Shown: piece after piece, positions 18,628-46,618 of the stretch
Layout of the letters: every line of letters begins with the position of its first letter
Position numbering within the stretch: the stretch's first letter is position 1
DNA from: a virus
Strand: one strand, 5' to 3'
IMG/VR virus record: IMGVR_UViG_3300045116_000678
Span: 18,903 to 82,902 of that record
Length of the DNA: 64,000 nt
The notes under the pieces: generated by a model
Told to the model about the DNA's origin: nothing
The model's input: only the letters and a program-made list of their open reading frames with translations
Databases searched by the model: none
Translations under genes and position numbers: made by a program

Positions 18628-20214
18628 TCAAAGACGCCAATCAGGCGCCATTCCTTCTTCTTCGTCGGCCGTGGCGGTGGCCGAATCGAGCATCCCGAGT
18701 TCCTTGGCCTGAGCCCACTGTCGGAAGGCGTCCGCGCCCTCGCTGCAGAGGTTCCCCTTCTCGGGCTGGTCCACGAACCGGCTCTGCGCGCGATTGAACT
18801 TCTTGCGGTAGCCATCCAGGCGCTGGATGCCCAGGGCGCAGGCCTTGCGGTCCAGGAAGGCGCCCTTCATGTGCTTGCGCGTCTGGTGGATGCCGGTCAT
18901 CAGCTCTGTGATGCGCGGCACGATCTCGAAGCGCTGGCCGGGCATCAGGTCGGCCAGCATTTCTTTCGTGCTGCGGTTGTAGTCGCCCAGGCGCTTGTGG
19001 TCAGCGTCGTGCGGCAGGAAGTGACGGCCGAAGACATAGCCGCGCTTCTGCAGCTCGGTGACGTAGTGCCGCAGGTCCTCGCCGCGGGCTTCGTAGTAGC
19101 CGATGAAGCGATCCTGGCCGCGCAGGTCCTGGTGGAACCACACCGCGCACCCGTCGCTGTTGCCGATGTCCCAGAAGGTGTTCACCGGCAGGTCCAGCAC
19201 CGGCACATCCGTGATGCCGCCGCGCTTGCGCAGCGCGGTCATGTCCTTGGCGTAGTAGTTCCCCTCGGTGCTGATCTGGAAGGCCTCGACCGGCGTCGAC
19301 GGGTACTCCTGCCACATCCGCTCCTCGCGCCCGGAGAAGTCGGCCTCCATCGTGGCGACATACCAAGCGCGCTGGTCGATGTCGATGGTGCAGTCCATCT
19401 CGACCTCGACCCGATCGAAGTAGTCGTGCTGCTCCGTGGTGATCGCCACGGACCGCGAGTCCATGCGGTACTTCGGCTCCTGCCACCAAGCGTAGAAGTG
19501 GAACCGGTAGTCGCGCGGCGTGAGGGGCAGCTTGCCAGCGTGCGCAGCCTCGGCGCGCTGCACCATCTCGAAGAACTCGCCTTCCCTGCCCTCGGCCGTG
19601 CTCTCGATGACCAGGATGCCGTTGAGCGGCACGGCGGGGATGGAGCCGGTGACGACCTCGGCCGCCTTGTCGGGGAACTTGGCGCAGATCTTCCCGAACT
19701 CGCTGACGTGCAGGCGGTGGATCGTGCCCGACCGCATGGACGTGGCGACGCGCACGCTGCTGTTGTTGTGCGCGAAAAGCAGTTCTGTCGCGCTGTCGCG
19801 TGCGAGAGGGAACCGCTCACGGATCTCGACTGGCAGGCTGTCGTAGGCGAACTTGACCTTGTCCCGGAAGATGACTTCGGCAGCCTCGCGGTCCTGGGCG
19901 ATGATCCCGCAGCGCTGGTCGGAATTGAACAGGGCGTGGTCCAGCCAAAGGATCGCGATCAGGGTGGTGAAGCCCAGCTGCCGCGCCTTCAGGATCAGGT
20001 TCCGGTGCCACAGACGACGCACGAACCGCCGCTGAGCGCGGTTGGGCCGGAAGGGCATGACCATGGCGTCGTCGCCGTCGTCGTCGCCCTTCACCATGAT
20101 CTTGTAGAGGCAGCCGCTGAAGACGCGCCACTCCGGGTCCGCCAGGCAGCGCGCCAGCTCCGCGGCGTTGGTCGGCAGCGGAAGGAGCGGCTCGTCGTGC
20201 GTGATGGTGGTCAC
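18628..20214 (-). CDS. terL: Terminase large subunit
   Basis: Walker A LKARQLGFTT, Walker B LHVSE, IESTAEG, nuclease WDIG..D, LPHD, GADAFR. Confidence 0.95.
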   Translation of the reverse strand: MTTITHDEPLLPLPTNAAELARCLADPEWRVFSGCLYKIMVKGDDDGDDAMVMPFRPNRAQRRFVRRLWHRNLILKARQLGFTTLIAILWLDHALFNSDQRCGIIAQDREAAEVIFRDKVKFAYDSLPVEIRERFPLARDSATELLFAHNNSSVRVATSMRSGTIHRLHVSEFGKICAKFPDKAAEVVTGSIPAVPLNGILVIESTAEGREGEFFEMVQRAEAAHAGKLPLTPRDYRFHFYAWWQEPKYRMDSRSVAITTEQHDYFDRVEVEMDCTIDIDQRAWYVATMEADFSGREERMWQEYPSTPVEAFQISTEGNYYAKDMTALRKRGGITDVPVLDLPVNTFWDIGNSDGCAVWFHQDLRGQDRFIGYYEARGEDLRHYVTELQKRGYVFGRHFLPHDADHKRLGDYNRSTKEMLADLMPGQRFEIVPRITELMTGIHQTRKHMKGAFLDRKACALGIQRLDGYRKKFNRAQSRFVDQPEKGNLCSEGADAFRQWAQAKELGMLDSATATADEEEGMAPDWRL

Positions 20215-21157: not shown

Positions 21158-21198
21158 AGTGTTCCTGCACCTTCACCCACGGTCGAACCCTATAGGGG
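21158..21198 (-). promoter_or_regulatory. Late promoter copy 5
   Basis: CCCCTATAGGG-N24-AACACT, 8 nt before terS ATG. Confidence 0.7.
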
Positions 21199-21226: not shown

Positions 21227-21814
21227 ATGAAAGTGCTGCAGTCGTTTCTCATGGCGGTCGCCGTTGCTTCGTACGTCCCTGCCTATGCAGCCGAAGACGC
21301 TGAAGCCCTGAAAGCGCTGGTCGACCGGCAGAACAGCATCTGCAGAGGTGGCGCCGGCGGCGACCAGACCAAGATGGAGGCAGCCTGCGATGAGCGCGGC
21401 CGCAACATGGCGCGGCTCGAGCGCATGGGGTGGTGCTGGGGCCCGGCTGACCAGCCCGGCTACCTGCAGAAGTGGATACGCTGCCCCGGGCAAGCGGGTG
21501 CTCAAGCGCGGCAGCAGGGCGAGAGCCAGTCCTCCGACGACGCGCGGCTCGTCAGCTGCGCGAAGCAAGCGACGCTGCTACAAGACATCGCGAGGTGGCG
21601 AGATGCTGGCGTGCCGGCTGATAGCGGCCGCGCGTTCCAGCGTGCGATGGCCAGGGCCGCCTATTTGGAACTGCCCAAGGCATTCACGGACAGGCTGGGC
21701 GGGCTGTACGGTGACATCCACCACGGCCGCATGCTCGGGATGACCCCGAACGAGATTCTGGCGGATTGGACCGTGAAGTGCCGCAGCGCGGCTTCACTGC
21801 GGAAGCCTGCATAG
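21227..21814 (+). CDS. Secreted Cys-containing moron protein
   Basis: Signal peptide MKVLQSFLMAVAVASYVPAYA; CRGG..ACDER..GWCWG. Confidence 0.7.
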   Translation: MKVLQSFLMAVAVASYVPAYAAEDAEALKALVDRQNSICRGGAGGDQTKMEAACDERGRNMARLERMGWCWGPADQPGYLQKWIRCPGQAGAQARQQGESQSSDDARLVSCAKQATLLQDIARWRDAGVPADSGRAFQRAMARAAYLELPKAFTDRLGGLYGDIHHGRMLGMTPNEILADWTVKCRSAASLRKPA

Positions 21815-21833
21815 TAGTAGCAACTGCCGAGAC

Positions 21834-21866
21834 AAAGAAAGCCCGCCAGGCGCAGGCCCGGCGGGC
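21834..21866 (-). terminator. Intrinsic terminator
   Basis: GCCCGCCGGGC-CTGC-GCCTGGCGGGC-TTTCTTT. Confidence 0.7.
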
Positions 21867-22082
21867 GAATCACGCGAGACAGGATCGCGCGAGGAGACAT
21901 CTGGCCGGCGCAGGCGCCGGGGTACGGCCAATCCGACTACGTGCGCAGTGCACGCTTGGCCGTGCGGTTCTCATCCCGCCCTGCATCCCCCGGGATGAGC
22001 GAGGGGTAATGATGGAGTGGCTTGCCCCCCACTCCCGCGCCAGGGCTGGCACTCAACTCGGGGACCGTCGTTGCCGACCGAG
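21834..22082 (-). ncRNA. Putative ~250-nt multi-hairpin late ncRNA
   Basis: Bounded by late promoter copy 6 and terminator; consecutive hairpins; no convincing ORF. Confidence 0.55.
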
Positions 22083-22430
22083 CCCTGATAGTCGCCGCGC
22101 TGGGTGTTGAGCCGAACCCCTACAGGGGGCCGACAAGGTGGCTGGGGATGTCCGGCCGAAGCGCGCAGCCACGATGGCGCGGCCCACGGCCATGCGCATG
22201 GTCTGGCCCTCGATCCACGGCCCGGCTGGGATGCTGGCGCCAGGCCGGCCGACGACCACTGCGCACCAGATCCAGTCTTTCCCGGGCATGGGTGCCGCCT
22301 GGATGGCTAGGCGTTCCATCACCATGTCGATGTCGGGCCAGCGGGTGAGGTACTGGGTGCCGGCCGGCGCGTCCAAGGCCTGGGCGATCAGGGCTTCGAG
22401 GGTCTTGCTGGGGAGCTCGGAGACTTGCAC
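22053..22430 (-). CDS. NinX/DUF2591-like protein
   Basis: GGGAGAGA RBS; G.T...AVGRAIVAARFG motif. Confidence 0.55.
   Translation of the reverse strand: MQVSELPSKTLEALIAQALDAPAGTQYLTRWPDIDMVMERLAIQAAPMPGKDWIWCAVVVGRPGASIPAGPWIEGQTMRMAVGRAIVAARFGRTSPATLSAPCRGSAQHPARRLSGLGRQRRSPS
22088..22128 (-). promoter_or_regulatory. Late promoter copy 6
   Basis: CCCCTGTAGGG-N24-GACTAT. Confidence 0.7.
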
Positions 22431-22453
22431 CTGCCGATTCTCTCCCGCGTGCC

Positions 22454-22531
22454 TGGTGCCGCCACCACGGATTCGAACCTGGGGCCCTTCCCTTACAGGG
22501 GGAACGCTCTACCGGACTGAGCTATGACGGC
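22454..22531 (-). tRNA. tRNA-Thr(TGT), variant
   Basis: GCCGTCA/TGGCGGC acceptor, GCTC/GAGC D-stem, TTCCC-CCTGTAA-GGGAA anticodon arm, TTCGAAT T-loop, ACCA. Confidence 0.8.
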
Positions 22532-22538
22532 TGTGGAG

Positions 22539-22653
22539 TGATGGTGGCCGGTGCTGATCCCCGGCGCGGCTTCTGCAGGTCGGAGCGAATCACGCCTTGC
22601 GATCCATGCCGCCCCTCTCCGCATCGGGGCGCCCAGCATGCGCGTTCACCATC
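22539..22653 (-). ncRNA. tRNA-like RNA with complementary D- and T-like loops
   Basis: GATGGTG/CACCATC stem; GCGC-ATGCTGG-GCGC; GCCGG-GGATCAGCA-CCGGC. Confidence 0.55.
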
Positions 22654-22927
22654 GTGTCGAGGCACTGTGCGCTCCCCCAGGAACCCCCGGCGGCAATGCC
22701 TCGGCATGATGGCGCCCCGTCTTCCCGGGGCGCCAGCGCTGTTTTGCATCACGCCCGGGCAACTGGCCCAGTCTCAACGCTCTGCATGGGCCTCACCCCA
22801 ACCGGGGCATTTGCCGCGCCTTCCCTCGCAATGGGTGCCGGTTGCCGCCCGGCGCCGTCGCAGGTGTCCACGTTGGGGTCTGCGGCAGCGGCTTACCCCT
22901 TGCGAGGGCGCTCTCTCTACGGTTGTC

Positions 22928-23004
22928 TGGTTGCGGGAACCGGACTTGAACCGGCGGCCTCCGGGGTATGAGCCCGGCGCTCTAACCAACTGAGCTAGCC
23001 CGCG
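22928..23004 (-). tRNA. tRNA-Met(CAT), initiator-like
   Basis: 77 nt; C1:A72 mismatch; GGG/CCC anticodon stem; CAT; TTCAAGT; ACCA. Confidence 0.88.
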
Positions 23005-23527
23005 GCGCGAAGTCTCCAGCGTTGGCGGCCGCCTTCACAGCCCTACAGGGGGTGCCGAACAGCTGCCCCTGCTCCGGGTCGACCTTCTCGGCAAGGGCCT
23101 GCACCTGGCGGCGCAGTCGGAGGATCTCCTGCGCTTGCTCCGCGGCGATGGTGGCCATGTTGCGGCCCGTCTCGATCGCGGCAGCCTGCGCGGCGGCGCC
23201 GGCCTGCAGGTTGGCCAGCATGCGGTCCTCCCGCGGCGTCAGGTTCAGCACCTCGTCGCCGATTTCGAGCTTCACCATGCCATCCGGCATGACGGTCTTG
23301 CTCATCGGCCGCGCCGGCGGGTGCCGCGGTGCCGGCACGTAGACGCCGCGCTGCACCCGCAGGATGGCTCCATCGTCGGCCAGGGTGCCGAGGCGGTCAT
23401 CGATCACCGTGAGCTTGAGTCCAGTGAGCCCGGCGAGCGTCTCCCGGGTCACGATCTGTTCCTGGGCGTGCAGATCCTGCACGGCCTCCATAACCAGGGC
23501 GGTGGTCGATTTGCGGGTGTCAGCCAT
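22982..23527 (-). CDS. Winged-helix DNA-binding protein; candidate late activator
   Basis: GAGGAG RBS; VTRETLAGLTGLKLTVIDDRLGTLADDGAILRVQRGVY; last gene of early operon. Confidence 0.65.
   Translation of the reverse strand: MADTRKSTTALVMEAVQDLHAQEQIVTRETLAGLTGLKLTVIDDRLGTLADDGAILRVQRGVYVPAPRHPPARPMSKTVMPDGMVKLEIGDEVLNLTPREDRMLANLQAGAAAQAAAIETGRNMATIAAEQAQEILRLRRQVQALAEKVDPEQGQLFGTPCRAVKAAANAGDFAPRASSVG
23011..23051 (-). promoter_or_regulatory. Late promoter copy 7
   Basis: CCCCTGTAGGG-N24-GAGACT, 6 nt before tRNA-Met nucleotide 1. Confidence 0.72.
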
Positions 23528-34278: not shown

Positions 34279-34569
34279 TCAGGCTGCCTCCTTCGCGGCG
34301 GCAGCGAAGTCCAGCACCGGCCTGCCCTTCGGGTTGGGCCAGTTCTTGTCGGGGATGCGGCGCCAAGGTTCACTTGGGCGCAACTCCTCGCACGTCACCG
34401 CGCCGAAGGTGGCTTGCTCGATAGCAACGCTGTATTCAGGGCTAGGCAGCCGGTCCGCATAGCCGTGTTGCCACTGCCTGACTTGCGCGTCGCTTTTGGC
34501 GCCGATTGCCTGGCGCAGGTCGGCGACTGTCCGCGCGCCGTCGCTTTTGAGGGATTCGTCGAGTCGCAT
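34279..34569 (-). CDS. cro: Cro/YdaS-like repressor
   Basis: HTH; AIEQATFGAVTCEELRP; divergent from cI. Confidence 0.8.
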   Translation of the reverse strand: MRLDESLKSDGARTVADLRQAIGAKSDAQVRQWQHGYADRLPSPEYSVAIEQATFGAVTCEELRPSEPWRRIPDKNWPNPKGRPVLDFAAAAKEAA

Positions 34570-40290: not shown

Positions 40291-41196
40291 ATGCGCTTCA
40301 AGAACGCCATCAACTTCCGAATCGAGCCGACTTGGCAGGCCGACCATGGGTGCGCACTGGAAGGCCTCGCCCCAGCGGCCTTCGTGCCCTGCGGCCCCTC
40401 GCAGGAAAGTGCCGCCGGCTGGGTGCCGCCGCGCGGGCAGGAACACGGCTCCCTGCTTGAATCCGTCGACGGCCAGTGGCTGCTCGTCTACATGGTCGAG
40501 AGCAAGGCGCTGCCCGCCTCCGTCGTCCGCCGCAAGGTGGACGAGCGCGCCGCGCAGATCGAGGCCACCACCGGCCGCGCGCCAGGCAAGAAGGAGAAGA
40601 AGCAGCTCAAGGAGGACATCACGCACGAGCTGCTGCCGCTGGCCTTCACGCGCCATGCGCGCACGGCGGTGTGGATCGACCCCGACCAGCGCCGCCTGAC
40701 GCTCGACACCTCGAACATGGCGCGCGCCGATTCGGTGGTCACGGCCCTGGTGCAGGCGATCCCCGGCTTTGCCGTGGGTGCGGTGCATACCCAGGTGGAG
40801 CCGGCCAGCGCCATGGCCGGCTGGCTGGCCACACAGGATCCGCCCTCTGGCTTCACCATCGACAGGGAGTGCGAACTCAAGGCCACCGACGACTCCAAGG
40901 CCGTGGTGCGCTACGGCAAGCACCCGCTGGACATCGAAGAGGTCCGCCAGCACATCGCCAGCGGGAAGCGGCCCACGCGCTTGGCCATGACCTGGGAGGA
41001 CCGCGTGTCCTTCGAACTGACCGAAGGCGGGCAACTGCGCAAGCTGGCCTTCCTCGAAGGCGTATTCGACGGCGGCGAATCGAAGGGCGGCAAGGGCAGC
41101 GACGAGAACTTCGACACCGACGCCGCCATCGTCACCGGCGAGCTGGGACAGCTGCTGCCCGCCCTGATCGACGCCCTCGGTGGGGAGACGTCGTGA
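40291..41196 (+). CDS. rdgC: Recombination-associated protein RdgC
   Basis: FKNAINFR..GWVPP..LLPLAF..SFELT..ALGG. Confidence 0.92.
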   Translation: MRFKNAINFRIEPTWQADHGCALEGLAPAAFVPCGPSQESAAGWVPPRGQEHGSLLESVDGQWLLVYMVESKALPASVVRRKVDERAAQIEATTGRAPGKKEKKQLKEDITHELLPLAFTRHARTAVWIDPDQRRLTLDTSNMARADSVVTALVQAIPGFAVGAVHTQVEPASAMAGWLATQDPPSGFTIDRECELKATDDSKAVVRYGKHPLDIEEVRQHIASGKRPTRLAMTWEDRVSFELTEGGQLRKLAFLEGVFDGGESKGGKGSDENFDTDAAIVTGELGQLLPALIDALGGETS

Positions 41197-41837
41197 TGTG
41201 GGAAACAAAACTCTCGATGCTCAAGCGCGGCATCGACCTGATGGAGCGCTTCTGCGCGGCCAATGACCTCCAGGTGCCGCCCGTCGTGGCAACCGATCGG
41301 CGGGCCTGGAACTTCGACGCCTGCGCCTACTACCGGCCGATCGAGATCCACATCTGTCCCTATAGGTGCGCGGCGATCGGCTACGCCGGCATGCAGTGGT
41401 CGTTTCCAGGCCATTCCGTCGACCGCACACCCTATGGCGTGATCGCCCACGAGCTCGGCCACCATGCCGATTGGGTCAGGAGCGACCAGAAGGGCCGCTA
41501 CTTCGGCGATTTCAGCATTGCCATGCGCAAGCGCTGTGCGGAAGCGCCGCTGACGTCCTACTGCCCAAACGACGCAGAGTGGTTCGCGGAGATGTTCCGG
41601 CTGTTCGTCACGAACCCGGATCTGCTGTCGCATCTGCGGCCGCGCACCCACGCAGATCTGTTGGAACACTTCAAGCCAGTCTTCGAAGACGCCTGGAGCC
41701 AGCGACTGCACGGCGCACCTGATCGGACCATCCTGGCCATCCGCCGCAAGCTGGATCCGAAGCGGCCAGTGCGCAAGGCTCACGAGCCGTCAGACCGCAA
41801 CTACCGCGACAGCGGATTGGAAAGAGCGGCAGCGTGA
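41196..41837 (+). CDS. HExxH zinc metallopeptidase-like protein
   Basis: AHELGHH ... SY..NDAEWFAEMF. Confidence 0.7.
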   Translation: MWETKLSMLKRGIDLMERFCAANDLQVPPVVATDRRAWNFDACAYYRPIEIHICPYRCAAIGYAGMQWSFPGHSVDRTPYGVIAHELGHHADWVRSDQKGRYFGDFSIAMRKRCAEAPLTSYCPNDAEWFAEMFRLFVTNPDLLSHLRPRTHADLLEHFKPVFEDAWSQRLHGAPDRTILAIRRKLDPKRPVRKAHEPSDRNYRDSGLERAAA

Positions 41838-46419: not shown

Positions 46420-46618
46420 TCGCCCGCAGCCAACTATTTCACGCGCGCTATGGAGGAATCTGACGGAAACTGAGCGTCCTCCCTGGCCGACCTCCAAGCG
46501 GCCTTCGGCCCACCCTAATCGGTGGGCTTTTTCTTGCATGGTGAGGGTTACCGGTTGCTGTCGGCTGTCTCCGCCGTCGTAGCCCCGCAGCGGGGCAACT
46601 GTCGATCCCGCACACCTG

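Follow-up and report, generated by a model that had tools for sequence, protein, structure and literature searches.

A conserved RNA gene in a provirus ends in a module that resembles the RF02278/S17 small RNAs

The window analyzed here, meaning the whole stretch of 64,000 nucleotides (nt) from position 18,903 to 82,902 of the 82.9-kb IMG/VR provirus record IMGVR_UViG_3300045116_000678 (G+C, 65%), encodes TerS, TerL, and a P22-type portal on its minus strand, as identified by Pfam/PHROG matches; the portals of Pseudomonas F116-like phages share 70% identity with this one. On the same strand, at window positions 21834-22082, an earlier note made from the letters alone had placed a stand-alone, unannotated phage noncoding RNA (ncRNA) built from consecutive hairpins. 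This has held up: 17 homologues carry compensatory changes, no reading frame is conserved, and the element moves independently of the open reading frame (ORF) upstream of it. We conclude from the comparison of these sequences that the phage ncRNA gene is real and conserved. Its architecture comprises a 5' domain of about 180 nt (hairpins P1 to P6) and a 3' double hairpin of 66 nt, and the latter resembles a family of bacterial small RNAs (sRNAs).

The element is flanked by a 125-amino-acid (aa) minus-strand ORF (22430-22053) and by a convergent plus-strand ORF (21227-21814), beyond which lies terS with a promoter copy of its own at 21197. Two tRNA genes lie close upstream, and these two tRNAs were all that Rfam detected at its gathering thresholds in the window.

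Transcription signals, homologues, and covariation

The RNA is preceded by copy 6 of a repeated unit that starts with a near-palindromic box, CCCTGTAGGG (22118-22127, minus strand), adjoined by a -35-like hexamer, TTCGGC (22111-22116), and followed exactly 24 nt past the box by a -10-like hexamer, GACTAT (22088-22093). Written as CCCTNTAGGG-N24-nAnnnT, this unit occurs 7 times in the window against 0 expected from 100 shuffles; all copies are on the minus strand (2751-23050), beginning at 2790, 9285, 13666, 15453, 21197, 22127, and 23050, and each sits ahead of a late unit, a tRNA, or the RNA treated here. In homologues, as in 6 of the window's 7 copies, the box is followed by TTCG. The second base (A) and the sixth base (T) of the -10-like hexamer are always kept, the position reading GAACAT, GAAGAT, or GACCAT in homologues and GAGACT, AACACT, GACCAT, CAAAGT, or CAAGAT in the other copies of the window. 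Most related loci hold the unit 2 to 5 times with the 24-nt spacing kept, and it stands 5' of the RNA in every long form with its 5' end in view, except for two forms fused to a tRNA. The dyad box, weak -35, -10-like hexamer, and single orientation have the geometry expected of an activator-dependent sigma-70-type late promoter: the near-palindrome suggests binding by a dimeric activator, TTCGnn, about 17 nt away from the -10-like hexamer, would be the -35 element, and transcription would start near 22081-22085. At the other end, a terminator scan identified an intrinsic terminator (21834-21866) with an 11-bp G+C-rich stem (21866-21841) followed by UUUCUUU; in homologues this stem is 97% paired, with 2 or 3 pairs changed on both sides. 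The placement of the RNA between a promoter copy and a terminator, as given in the earlier note, is thereby upheld, and the predicted primary transcript of about 245 to 250 nt (21834-22082) has its 3' end in the U-tract. At copy 7 of the unit (23004-23050, minus strand), the predicted start falls at about the first base of tRNA-Met (23004).

Searching with the 125-aa protein turned up ten IMG/VR loci, and at three of them (L001, L002, and L005) a clearly homologous element comes immediately after the gene; pattern scans of DNA in IMG/VR and in Joint Genome Institute (JGI) metagenomes, checked with nhmmer, raised the number of distinct long-form homologues to 17. Each homologue lies on a viral or metagenome contig, and related prophages presumably sit in sequenced isolates, judging by the form of the IMG/VR record names for L002, L019, L021, L055, and L072. 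The flanking protein is merely 49 to 75% identical in these relatives, yet the sequence and structure of the RNA are conserved. A blastn search in distant mode with the element and its surroundings found no match in 50,697 phage records, and a third IMG/VR pattern (GGATKGRYCG...TGTCTCCTC) retrieved no further long form. A pattern scan of genome contigs returned 41 stretches, mostly from Streptomyces and other high-G+C genomes, which were rejected as chance hits, none of them matching the family hidden Markov model (HMM).

The setting of the RNA varies among relatives. At loci L006 to L009, the module lies more than 1 kb from the 125-aa gene, behind an opposite-strand gene. L072 and L142 have a box-preceded tRNA-Met in place of the first ~50 nt; it runs straight into the structured RNA, an order in which the RNA would be co-transcribed with the tRNA. 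Short forms (L078, L050/L080/L094, and L092, and also L081 and L067) have nothing but the 3' module, 40 to 55 nt behind the box and hexamer, which argues that the sRNA-like module is the common core and the ~180-nt 5' domain an addition in one subgroup. As judged from these arrangements, the module is separable from the 125-aa gene and hence is not merely its 3' untranslated region (UTR).

Structure was tested by drawing eight helices by hand on a plain MAFFT alignment (A2), from which a covariance model (R1) was built. In the unfitted MAFFT alignment, 91 to 93% of cells were paired, compared to 33 to 42% with partners slid, and 12 or 13 pairs (35 or 36 cells) were changed on both sides, values that were reached by 0 to 4 of 500 shuffles. 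In the model-fitted alignment, 96% of cells were paired and 18 pairs (50 cells) were doubly changed, the pair types exceeding those of all 500 shuffles; slid-partner controls over both alignments gave 33 to 44% paired. A fitted alignment favors its own model, and the unfitted figures are therefore given more weight. The check on covariation among homologues that the earlier note had suggested thus came out in favor of structure, with 12 to 18 compensated pairs above the slid and shuffled controls. R1 recovered all 17 members at 210 to 325 bits, the window copy (21833-22127) among them at 252 bits, and found the element to be single copy in the 82.9-kb provirus record. Many cells are G.U pairs (for example, UG:12, GU:13, UG:11); on the opposite strand these would be A.C mismatches, which identifies the minus strand as the RNA strand.

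Hairpins and surroundings of the RNA

All six hairpins listed in the earlier note are present on the minus strand where it had put them; P2 and two helices of a central domain, Px and Py, had escaped it. The 5' hairpin P1 (22082-22057; CTCGG/CCGAG around GTCG-GCAA-CGAC) is the least conserved part of the RNA: at its site, homologues have another small hairpin (CCG-AUCA-CGG or CGG-GCAA-CCG), and L072 and L142 have the tRNA-Met instead. Next comes P2 (22052-22037; GUGCCA-GCCC-UGGCGC), in which 99% of cells are paired, one pair is changed on both sides in addition to G.U/G-C exchanges, and the GCCC loop is invariant. P3 (22035-22014; GGAGUGG/CCACUCC with a G-rich loop) is 97.5 to 100% paired and, being nearly invariant, is little informative for or against structure. 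The central domain (22005-21964) consists by comparative pairing of Px (CCCUCG/CGGGGG, 22005-21987), in which all 17 sequences are 100% paired and 2 pairs are changed on both sides, and Py (GCGG/CCGC, 21979-21964), which is 100% paired in the 16 sequences with letters there. The loops of Px and Py, CUCAUC and GAUGAG, are complementary to each other, with 89% of cells paired and one pair alternating between A-U (10) and G-C (6). The helix that the earlier note had listed in this domain, CTCATCCCG/CGGGATGAG (21999-21970), corresponds to an alternative nested helix, P4 (CUCAUCCCG/CGGGAUGAG), which alone is 88% paired. Such pairing points to kissing loops or to an RNA that switches between two conformers.

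Downstream of the central domain, the long hairpin P5 (21962-21925) nests an inner stem, GCGUGC/GCACGU, in an outer one, CGGCCAA/UUGGCCG, around a conserved internal loop that holds GGAU; it is 95 to 97% paired, with 5 pairs changed on both sides in the MAFFT alignment and 8 in the model-fitted one. Double changes give good support to P2 and to both stems of P5. P6 (21920-21905; CCGGCG-CCUG-CGCCGG) is 86% paired in the former alignment and 93.5% in the latter, with zero pairs changed on both sides. A linker, CCAGAUGUCUCCUC (21904-21891), then includes the CU-rich seed UGUCUCCUC (21899-21891), and both are unpaired in minimum free energy (MFE) folds. The seed opens the 66-nt double-hairpin 3' module (21899-21834), which continues with hairpin P7 (21891-21871; CGCGCGA/UCGCGUG), in which 4 pairs are changed on both sides in the model-fitted alignment, then GAUUCG, and then the terminator.

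Folding of the window copy by itself, in DNA of 69% G+C, was less telling. The whole 249 nt folded at -122.6 kcal/mol versus -116.1 ± 5.4 kcal/mol for dinucleotide shuffles (z = -1.2), with 28 of 200 shuffles folding as well, and the 5' 183 nt gave z = -0.42. The 3' 72 nt (21905-21834) reached z = -4.6, and their MFE and centroid structures are exactly two hairpins with the seed unpaired. By itself, hairpin content is thus above chance only in these 3' 72 nt, and the evidence for structure is comparative.

Of the two neighboring genes, the 125-aa ORF (22430-22053, minus strand; phrog_4389) extends 30 nt into the element, and its last ~25 codons form a read-through tail over the promoter and the start of the RNA. 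The homologous ORFs of L001, L002, and L005 are closed by TGA just before the box, and this stop is lost in the window (22053-22130, minus strand; CTGATC in L002 versus CTTGTC here). A lost TGA followed by read-through of ~25 codons agrees with a PHROG match that extends no farther than residue 94 and with a drop in third-codon-position G+C (GC3) after about 22115, and the tail is probably meaningless. The convergent plus-strand gene (21227-21814), of about 195 aa, has an N-terminus that looks signal-peptide-like by eye and weak PHROG matches only. It is located between the RNA terminator and the terS promoter and is missing at this spot in L001, where the element directly abuts the terS promoter, which marks it as a moron-like insertion in the window; its transcripts, if unterminated, would cross the sRNA antisense. 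Farther upstream, the ~400 nt between tRNA-Thr and tRNA-Met (22532-22927, minus strand) have no frame-specific GC3 signal and are, on that ground, probably noncoding. At L003 (4349-4490) and in the identical sequence of L004, what comes after the 125-aa gene is a different structured spacer, richer in A+T, that closes with a strong terminator (CCGCCCGGCC...GGCCGCGGCGG-TATTTTTTT) and has no similarity to the ncRNA family; it may be an unrelated RNA in the same slot.

The 3' module and RF02278

The comparison with Rfam that the earlier note had proposed gave a divided answer. The 5' domain matches no family, whereas the last 66 nt (21899-21834) match RF02278, the Betaproteobacteria toxic small RNA, over its full length at 32.9 bits, below the curated cut-off of 50; this likeness had escaped the earlier note. 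Its E-value was 5e-5 in a search of 361 nt, 1e-4 in one of 761 nt, and 2.8e-6 for the provirus record, and the syntenic copy of L002 scored 32.2 bits. Within the alignment, UGUCUCCUC and GAUUC agree letter for letter; the differences in the first stem are compensatory, and the terminator comes after it. Two features of the family are found here: two hairpins in ~60 to 67 nt, the second of them an intrinsic terminator and both stems with compensated pairs, and an unpaired 5' CU-rich site, UGUCUCCUC, complementary to the Shine-Dalgarno sequence. A difference is that RF02278 is a chromosomal gene of Betaproteobacteria and the element lies in an IMG/VR provirus record.

The seed UGUCUCCUC, which equals positions 1 to 9 of the RF02278 consensus, does not vary among the 17 long forms or among the inspected short forms (L078, L050/L080/L094, and L092). 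Independently of Rfam, CAG(U/A)UGUCUCCUCG stays invariant and unpaired while the neighboring hairpin changes by compensation, the pattern expected of a pairing seed. The linker between P6 and P7, CCAG(A/U)UGUCUCC, is exposed, a layout compatible with release of the module by RNase E. The idea that the 5' domain sequesters the seed was considered and rejected: no conserved complement was apparent by eye, and the seed is unpaired in the folds.

To calibrate the score, 151 sampled genomes of one GTDB class were searched; 31 of them had RF02278 matches at E ≤ 1e-4 (33 matches, 33 to 54 bits). Only 1 of these 33 chromosomal matches was above 50 bits, the rest scoring 33 to 49, so the curated threshold leaves out most chromosomal relatives and the window copy falls at the low end of their range. 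The sole hit above the cut-off (L151) starts with UGUCUCCUC, as does the module in the window, and most chromosomal matches (29 sampled genomes) contain a core, ACUCCUCCAUCCUCCUUUGGUGG. From these comparisons, the 3' module resembles the RF02278/S17 sRNAs, with membership below the curated score. Searches bearing on the host gave little: a portal search of the 151 sampled genomes produced a single match, 40% identical, and neither R1 nor BLAST with L006 found anything in the 151 genomes or in 401 genomes of the order of G151, a result in which few candidates were scored and which does not show absence. It is only from the resemblance of the sRNA that we infer a betaproteobacterial host.

Within the window, the best non-self duplex of the seed was at 41167-41200 on the plus strand (-24.5 kcal/mol), and the next, which is ribosome-binding-site (RBS)-like, was at 34300 on the minus strand (-22.8 kcal/mol), compared to a background of mean -9.7 and standard deviation 3.2 kcal/mol. 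The former, GGGGAGAC, is the Shine-Dalgarno region of a gene with its ATG at 41196, whose protein has an HExxH motif and which overlaps the stop of a 301-aa ORF (40291-41196) that is RdgC-like by eye only. The window also holds a second candidate CU-rich double-hairpin sRNA (46470-46540, plus strand), with an unpaired GUCCUCCCU, a hairpin GGCCG-ACCUCCAAG-CGGCC that has CCUCC in its loop, and a terminator CCCACC...GGUGGG-UUUUUCUU; it scores 20.8 bits against RF02278 (E of 0.003 for the record) and has no homologue among the loci compared.

Proposed function, alternatives, and known systems

The reading that we favor, with a probability of roughly 0.6, is that of a composite phage ncRNA gene specifying a late-expressed, trans-acting, anti-RBS sRNA that is made as a long precursor. 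Late lytic transcription would begin at the box promoter, near 22081-22085, and the long RNA would be cut in the exposed linker between CCAG and AUGUCUCC, before UGUCUCC, at a putative RNase E site just 5' of the seed. By analogy with the conversion of S17L to S17S in Bordetella, the cut would leave a stable sRNA of ~66 nt, whose CU-rich seed could pair, assisted by Hfq, with Shine-Dalgarno regions (complement GAGGAGACA) and so repress a set of host mRNAs, and possibly early phage mRNAs, at the level of translation. The 5' domain of ~180 nt would be accessory, most likely controlling the stability, processing, or timing of the sRNA; since short forms occur without it, it would not be required for sRNA function.

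Several points weigh against this proposal. The score against RF02278 is below the cut-off, the short form L078 scores 20.8 bits, and other phage copies are unlisted at E ≤ 10; the likeness rests mainly on a 9-nt seed and on architecture and could be convergence. The second CU-rich site typical of the family, in the loop of the first hairpin, appears to be partial here, with the loop AUCCUGUCU keeping UCCU, and does not appear conserved among phage copies, the loop having ACCUU in L002-type copies and being only CUCG in L006-type copies. The promoter is assigned from its sequence pattern alone. The seed matches inside the phage are ordinary Shine-Dalgarno regions and as such are suggestive leads only; duplexes were scored within the phage, a provirus from a lake-water metagenome. 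Among the 7 runs that hold the DNA (lake-water, root, and soil metagenome DNA), there was no RNA run. Lastly, the strong purifying selection seen on 5' helices and loops suggests a function of their own beyond this model.

Two explanations can be given very little credence. That the hairpins are a chance run in a functionless G+C-rich spacer would fit the single-sequence folds, which for the whole RNA and the 5' domain are no better than those of shuffles, but it is already contradicted by the comparison, in which sequence and structure are conserved next to a protein of only 49 to 75% identity and compensatory changes lie far above the slid and shuffled controls; we regard it as close to negligible. 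Scarcely better is the idea that the element encodes a small protein, in the 60-aa ORF (21870-22052, minus strand) or in another short frame. The earlier note had called the 60-aa ORF the only one and noncoding; the second judgment stands, and the first does not, as several overlapping frames of at least 30 aa are found on both strands. Open frames of 39 to 79 aa are indeed present, and a putative 32-aa ORF has been reported in the Bordetella S17 locus as well (PMC11722255). However, where the 60-aa ORF has its GTG start, relatives have GCG or GCA; in the L006 group, stops interrupt the frame by codon 15, other relatives have it shifted, and, more generally, homologues show stops or frameshifts within 15 to 40 codons, with 1- to 2-nt indels common. 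No frame of the element carries a GC3 signal, no Pfam or PHROG family matches the 60-aa ORF, and substitutions keep base pairs, not codons. A 79-aa frame from the ATG of CCAGATGTCTCC was also rejected: it extends across the terminator, lies antisense to the plus-strand gene, lacks a Shine-Dalgarno sequence, and has downstream sequence that differs in homologues.

More serious are two explanations that keep a functional RNA and place its function elsewhere. The element might act in cis, as a structured 3' UTR or terminator of the 125-aa gene or as a leader that modifies polymerase or termination before the packaging genes, and its position invites this idea, being right after the ORF and just upstream of the terS-terL-portal block, abutting the terS promoter in L001, and followed after the terminator by a same-strand ORF, before the next promoter copy, in L002 and L007/L009. 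This is unlikely in view of the complete promoter unit between the RNA and the upstream ORF in all homologues, the occurrence of the module away from that ORF and behind tRNAs, the promoter copy that terS has for itself, and the convergent orientation of the next gene in the window, into which read-through would be antisense. Alternatively, the 5' domain could be the functional part, binding or sensing a host or phage factor as a protein decoy, a sensor of a ligand or partner RNA, or a loop-multimerizing RNA, with the 3' hairpins a mere terminator or stabilizer. This would account for 9 compensated pairs of the domain in the unfitted alignment, for the covariation-supported complementarity of its CUCAUC and GAUGAG loops, and for the absence of any matching Rfam family; its invariant unpaired stretches, namely GCCC in P2, the G-rich loops of P3 and Px, and GGAU in the internal loop of P5, suggest specific recognition. 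It is nevertheless doubtful, because related phages drop the entire 5' domain while keeping the promoter and 3' module, L055, through an internal deletion of ~35 nt, is without the central Py region and without P5's 5' half, no other single-stranded element is as invariant across all copies as the 3' seed, and no repeated protein-binding motif is conserved. The specific roles floated in the earlier note found no support. A protein sponge would call for such a repeated motif, and a sponge for CsrA/RsmA through GGA motifs was rejected, the GGA of the Px loop being lost in L021, L038, and L072. An antitoxin of type III (ToxI-like), which would have tandem direct repeats beside an endoribonuclease toxin gene, is disfavored by the absence of tandem repeats in 21700-22500 and of any toxin or defense family (PADLOC, Pfam, and PHROG) among neighboring proteins, and an assembly RNA is disfavored by the lack of a pRNA-type match in Rfam and by an ordinary TerS, TerL, and P22-type portal.

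The anti-RBS sRNA that we favor also leaves room for a bolder, and so far tentative, idea that joins both domains: the 5' part could be a new class of structured phage RNA whose Px/Py kissing complex or switch would bind or sense a host factor and in this way gate the release or activity of the attached anti-RBS sRNA. If this were true, phages would have built a "sensor plus sRNA" fusion without a described counterpart. In any case, the 180-nt 5' domain, being outside known families, is a candidate new structured RNA. Should the favored reading be correct, a clade of temperate phages with P22-type portals would be using a host-type regulatory RNA fired from a late promoter, a compact way of reshaping host translation during virion production. 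Chromosomal versions of RF02278/S17-type RNAs repress mRNAs for transporters, catabolic functions, and sigma-54 regulators. To our knowledge, few phage-encoded base-pairing sRNAs have a known role.

Among phage RNAs, two well-known systems invite comparison. The lambda PR' 6S RNA and the HK022 put RNA are, like the present one, short structured phage RNAs, transcribed from a late or an early promoter, with a terminator just upstream of late genes. The differences are that terS here has its own promoter, that no antiterminator link was found, that the short forms consist only of the sRNA-like module, and that there is no similarity in sequence or in Rfam. The pRNA of phi29 is of similar size, has complementary loops, and is found near packaging genes; however, the element had no Rfam match to it at E ≤ 10, and packaging here would use TerS/TerL and a P22-type portal, whereas a phi29-type system has no small terminase.

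The closest likeness is to bacterial sRNAs. In the Burkholderia double-hairpin RNAs ncS03/05/27/62 (RF02278), unpaired stretches rich in C and U are complementary to ribosome-binding sites and act by covering them, and one of these RNAs, ncS27 (bdhR1/NcS27) of Burkholderia cenocepacia, has a processed short form and slows growth when overexpressed (PMC5688073; review, PMC10987360). The module in the window shares with these RNAs a length of ~60 to 67 nt and the order of a 5' CU-rich site (UGUCUCCUC), a hairpin, GAUUC, and an intrinsic terminator; it differs in being phage-borne and in lying behind a folded domain of ~180 nt and a phage late-type promoter. In Bordetella pertussis, S17L (190 nt) extends from its own promoter to an intrinsic terminator and is processed by RNase E to a stable, Hfq-bound, 67-nt S17S that starts at a C/U-rich single strand between stem-loops and represses the mRNA of BP2158, a sigma-54 activator, at its RBS; when S17 is lacking, many transporter genes are derepressed, and the authors linked S17 to RF02278 (PMC11722255). 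The order in the window is the same, with ~180 nt, a linker and seed, and a double hairpin, the predicted short RNA being the 3' end. Unlike S17S homologues, the window RNA lacks their 27-nt, 100%-conserved core (ACUCCUCCAUCCUCCUUUGGUGG), sharing CUCCUC alone, and the S17L leader is not reported as a conserved structure, whereas the 5' domain here is conserved. A literature search found no description of a phage copy of the RF02278/S17 family. What is new in the present case is an RF02278/S17-like sRNA that is carried by a phage, stands behind a late-type promoter, and is joined to a structured domain, and for which the comparison with its bacterial counterparts would predict a regulatory function.

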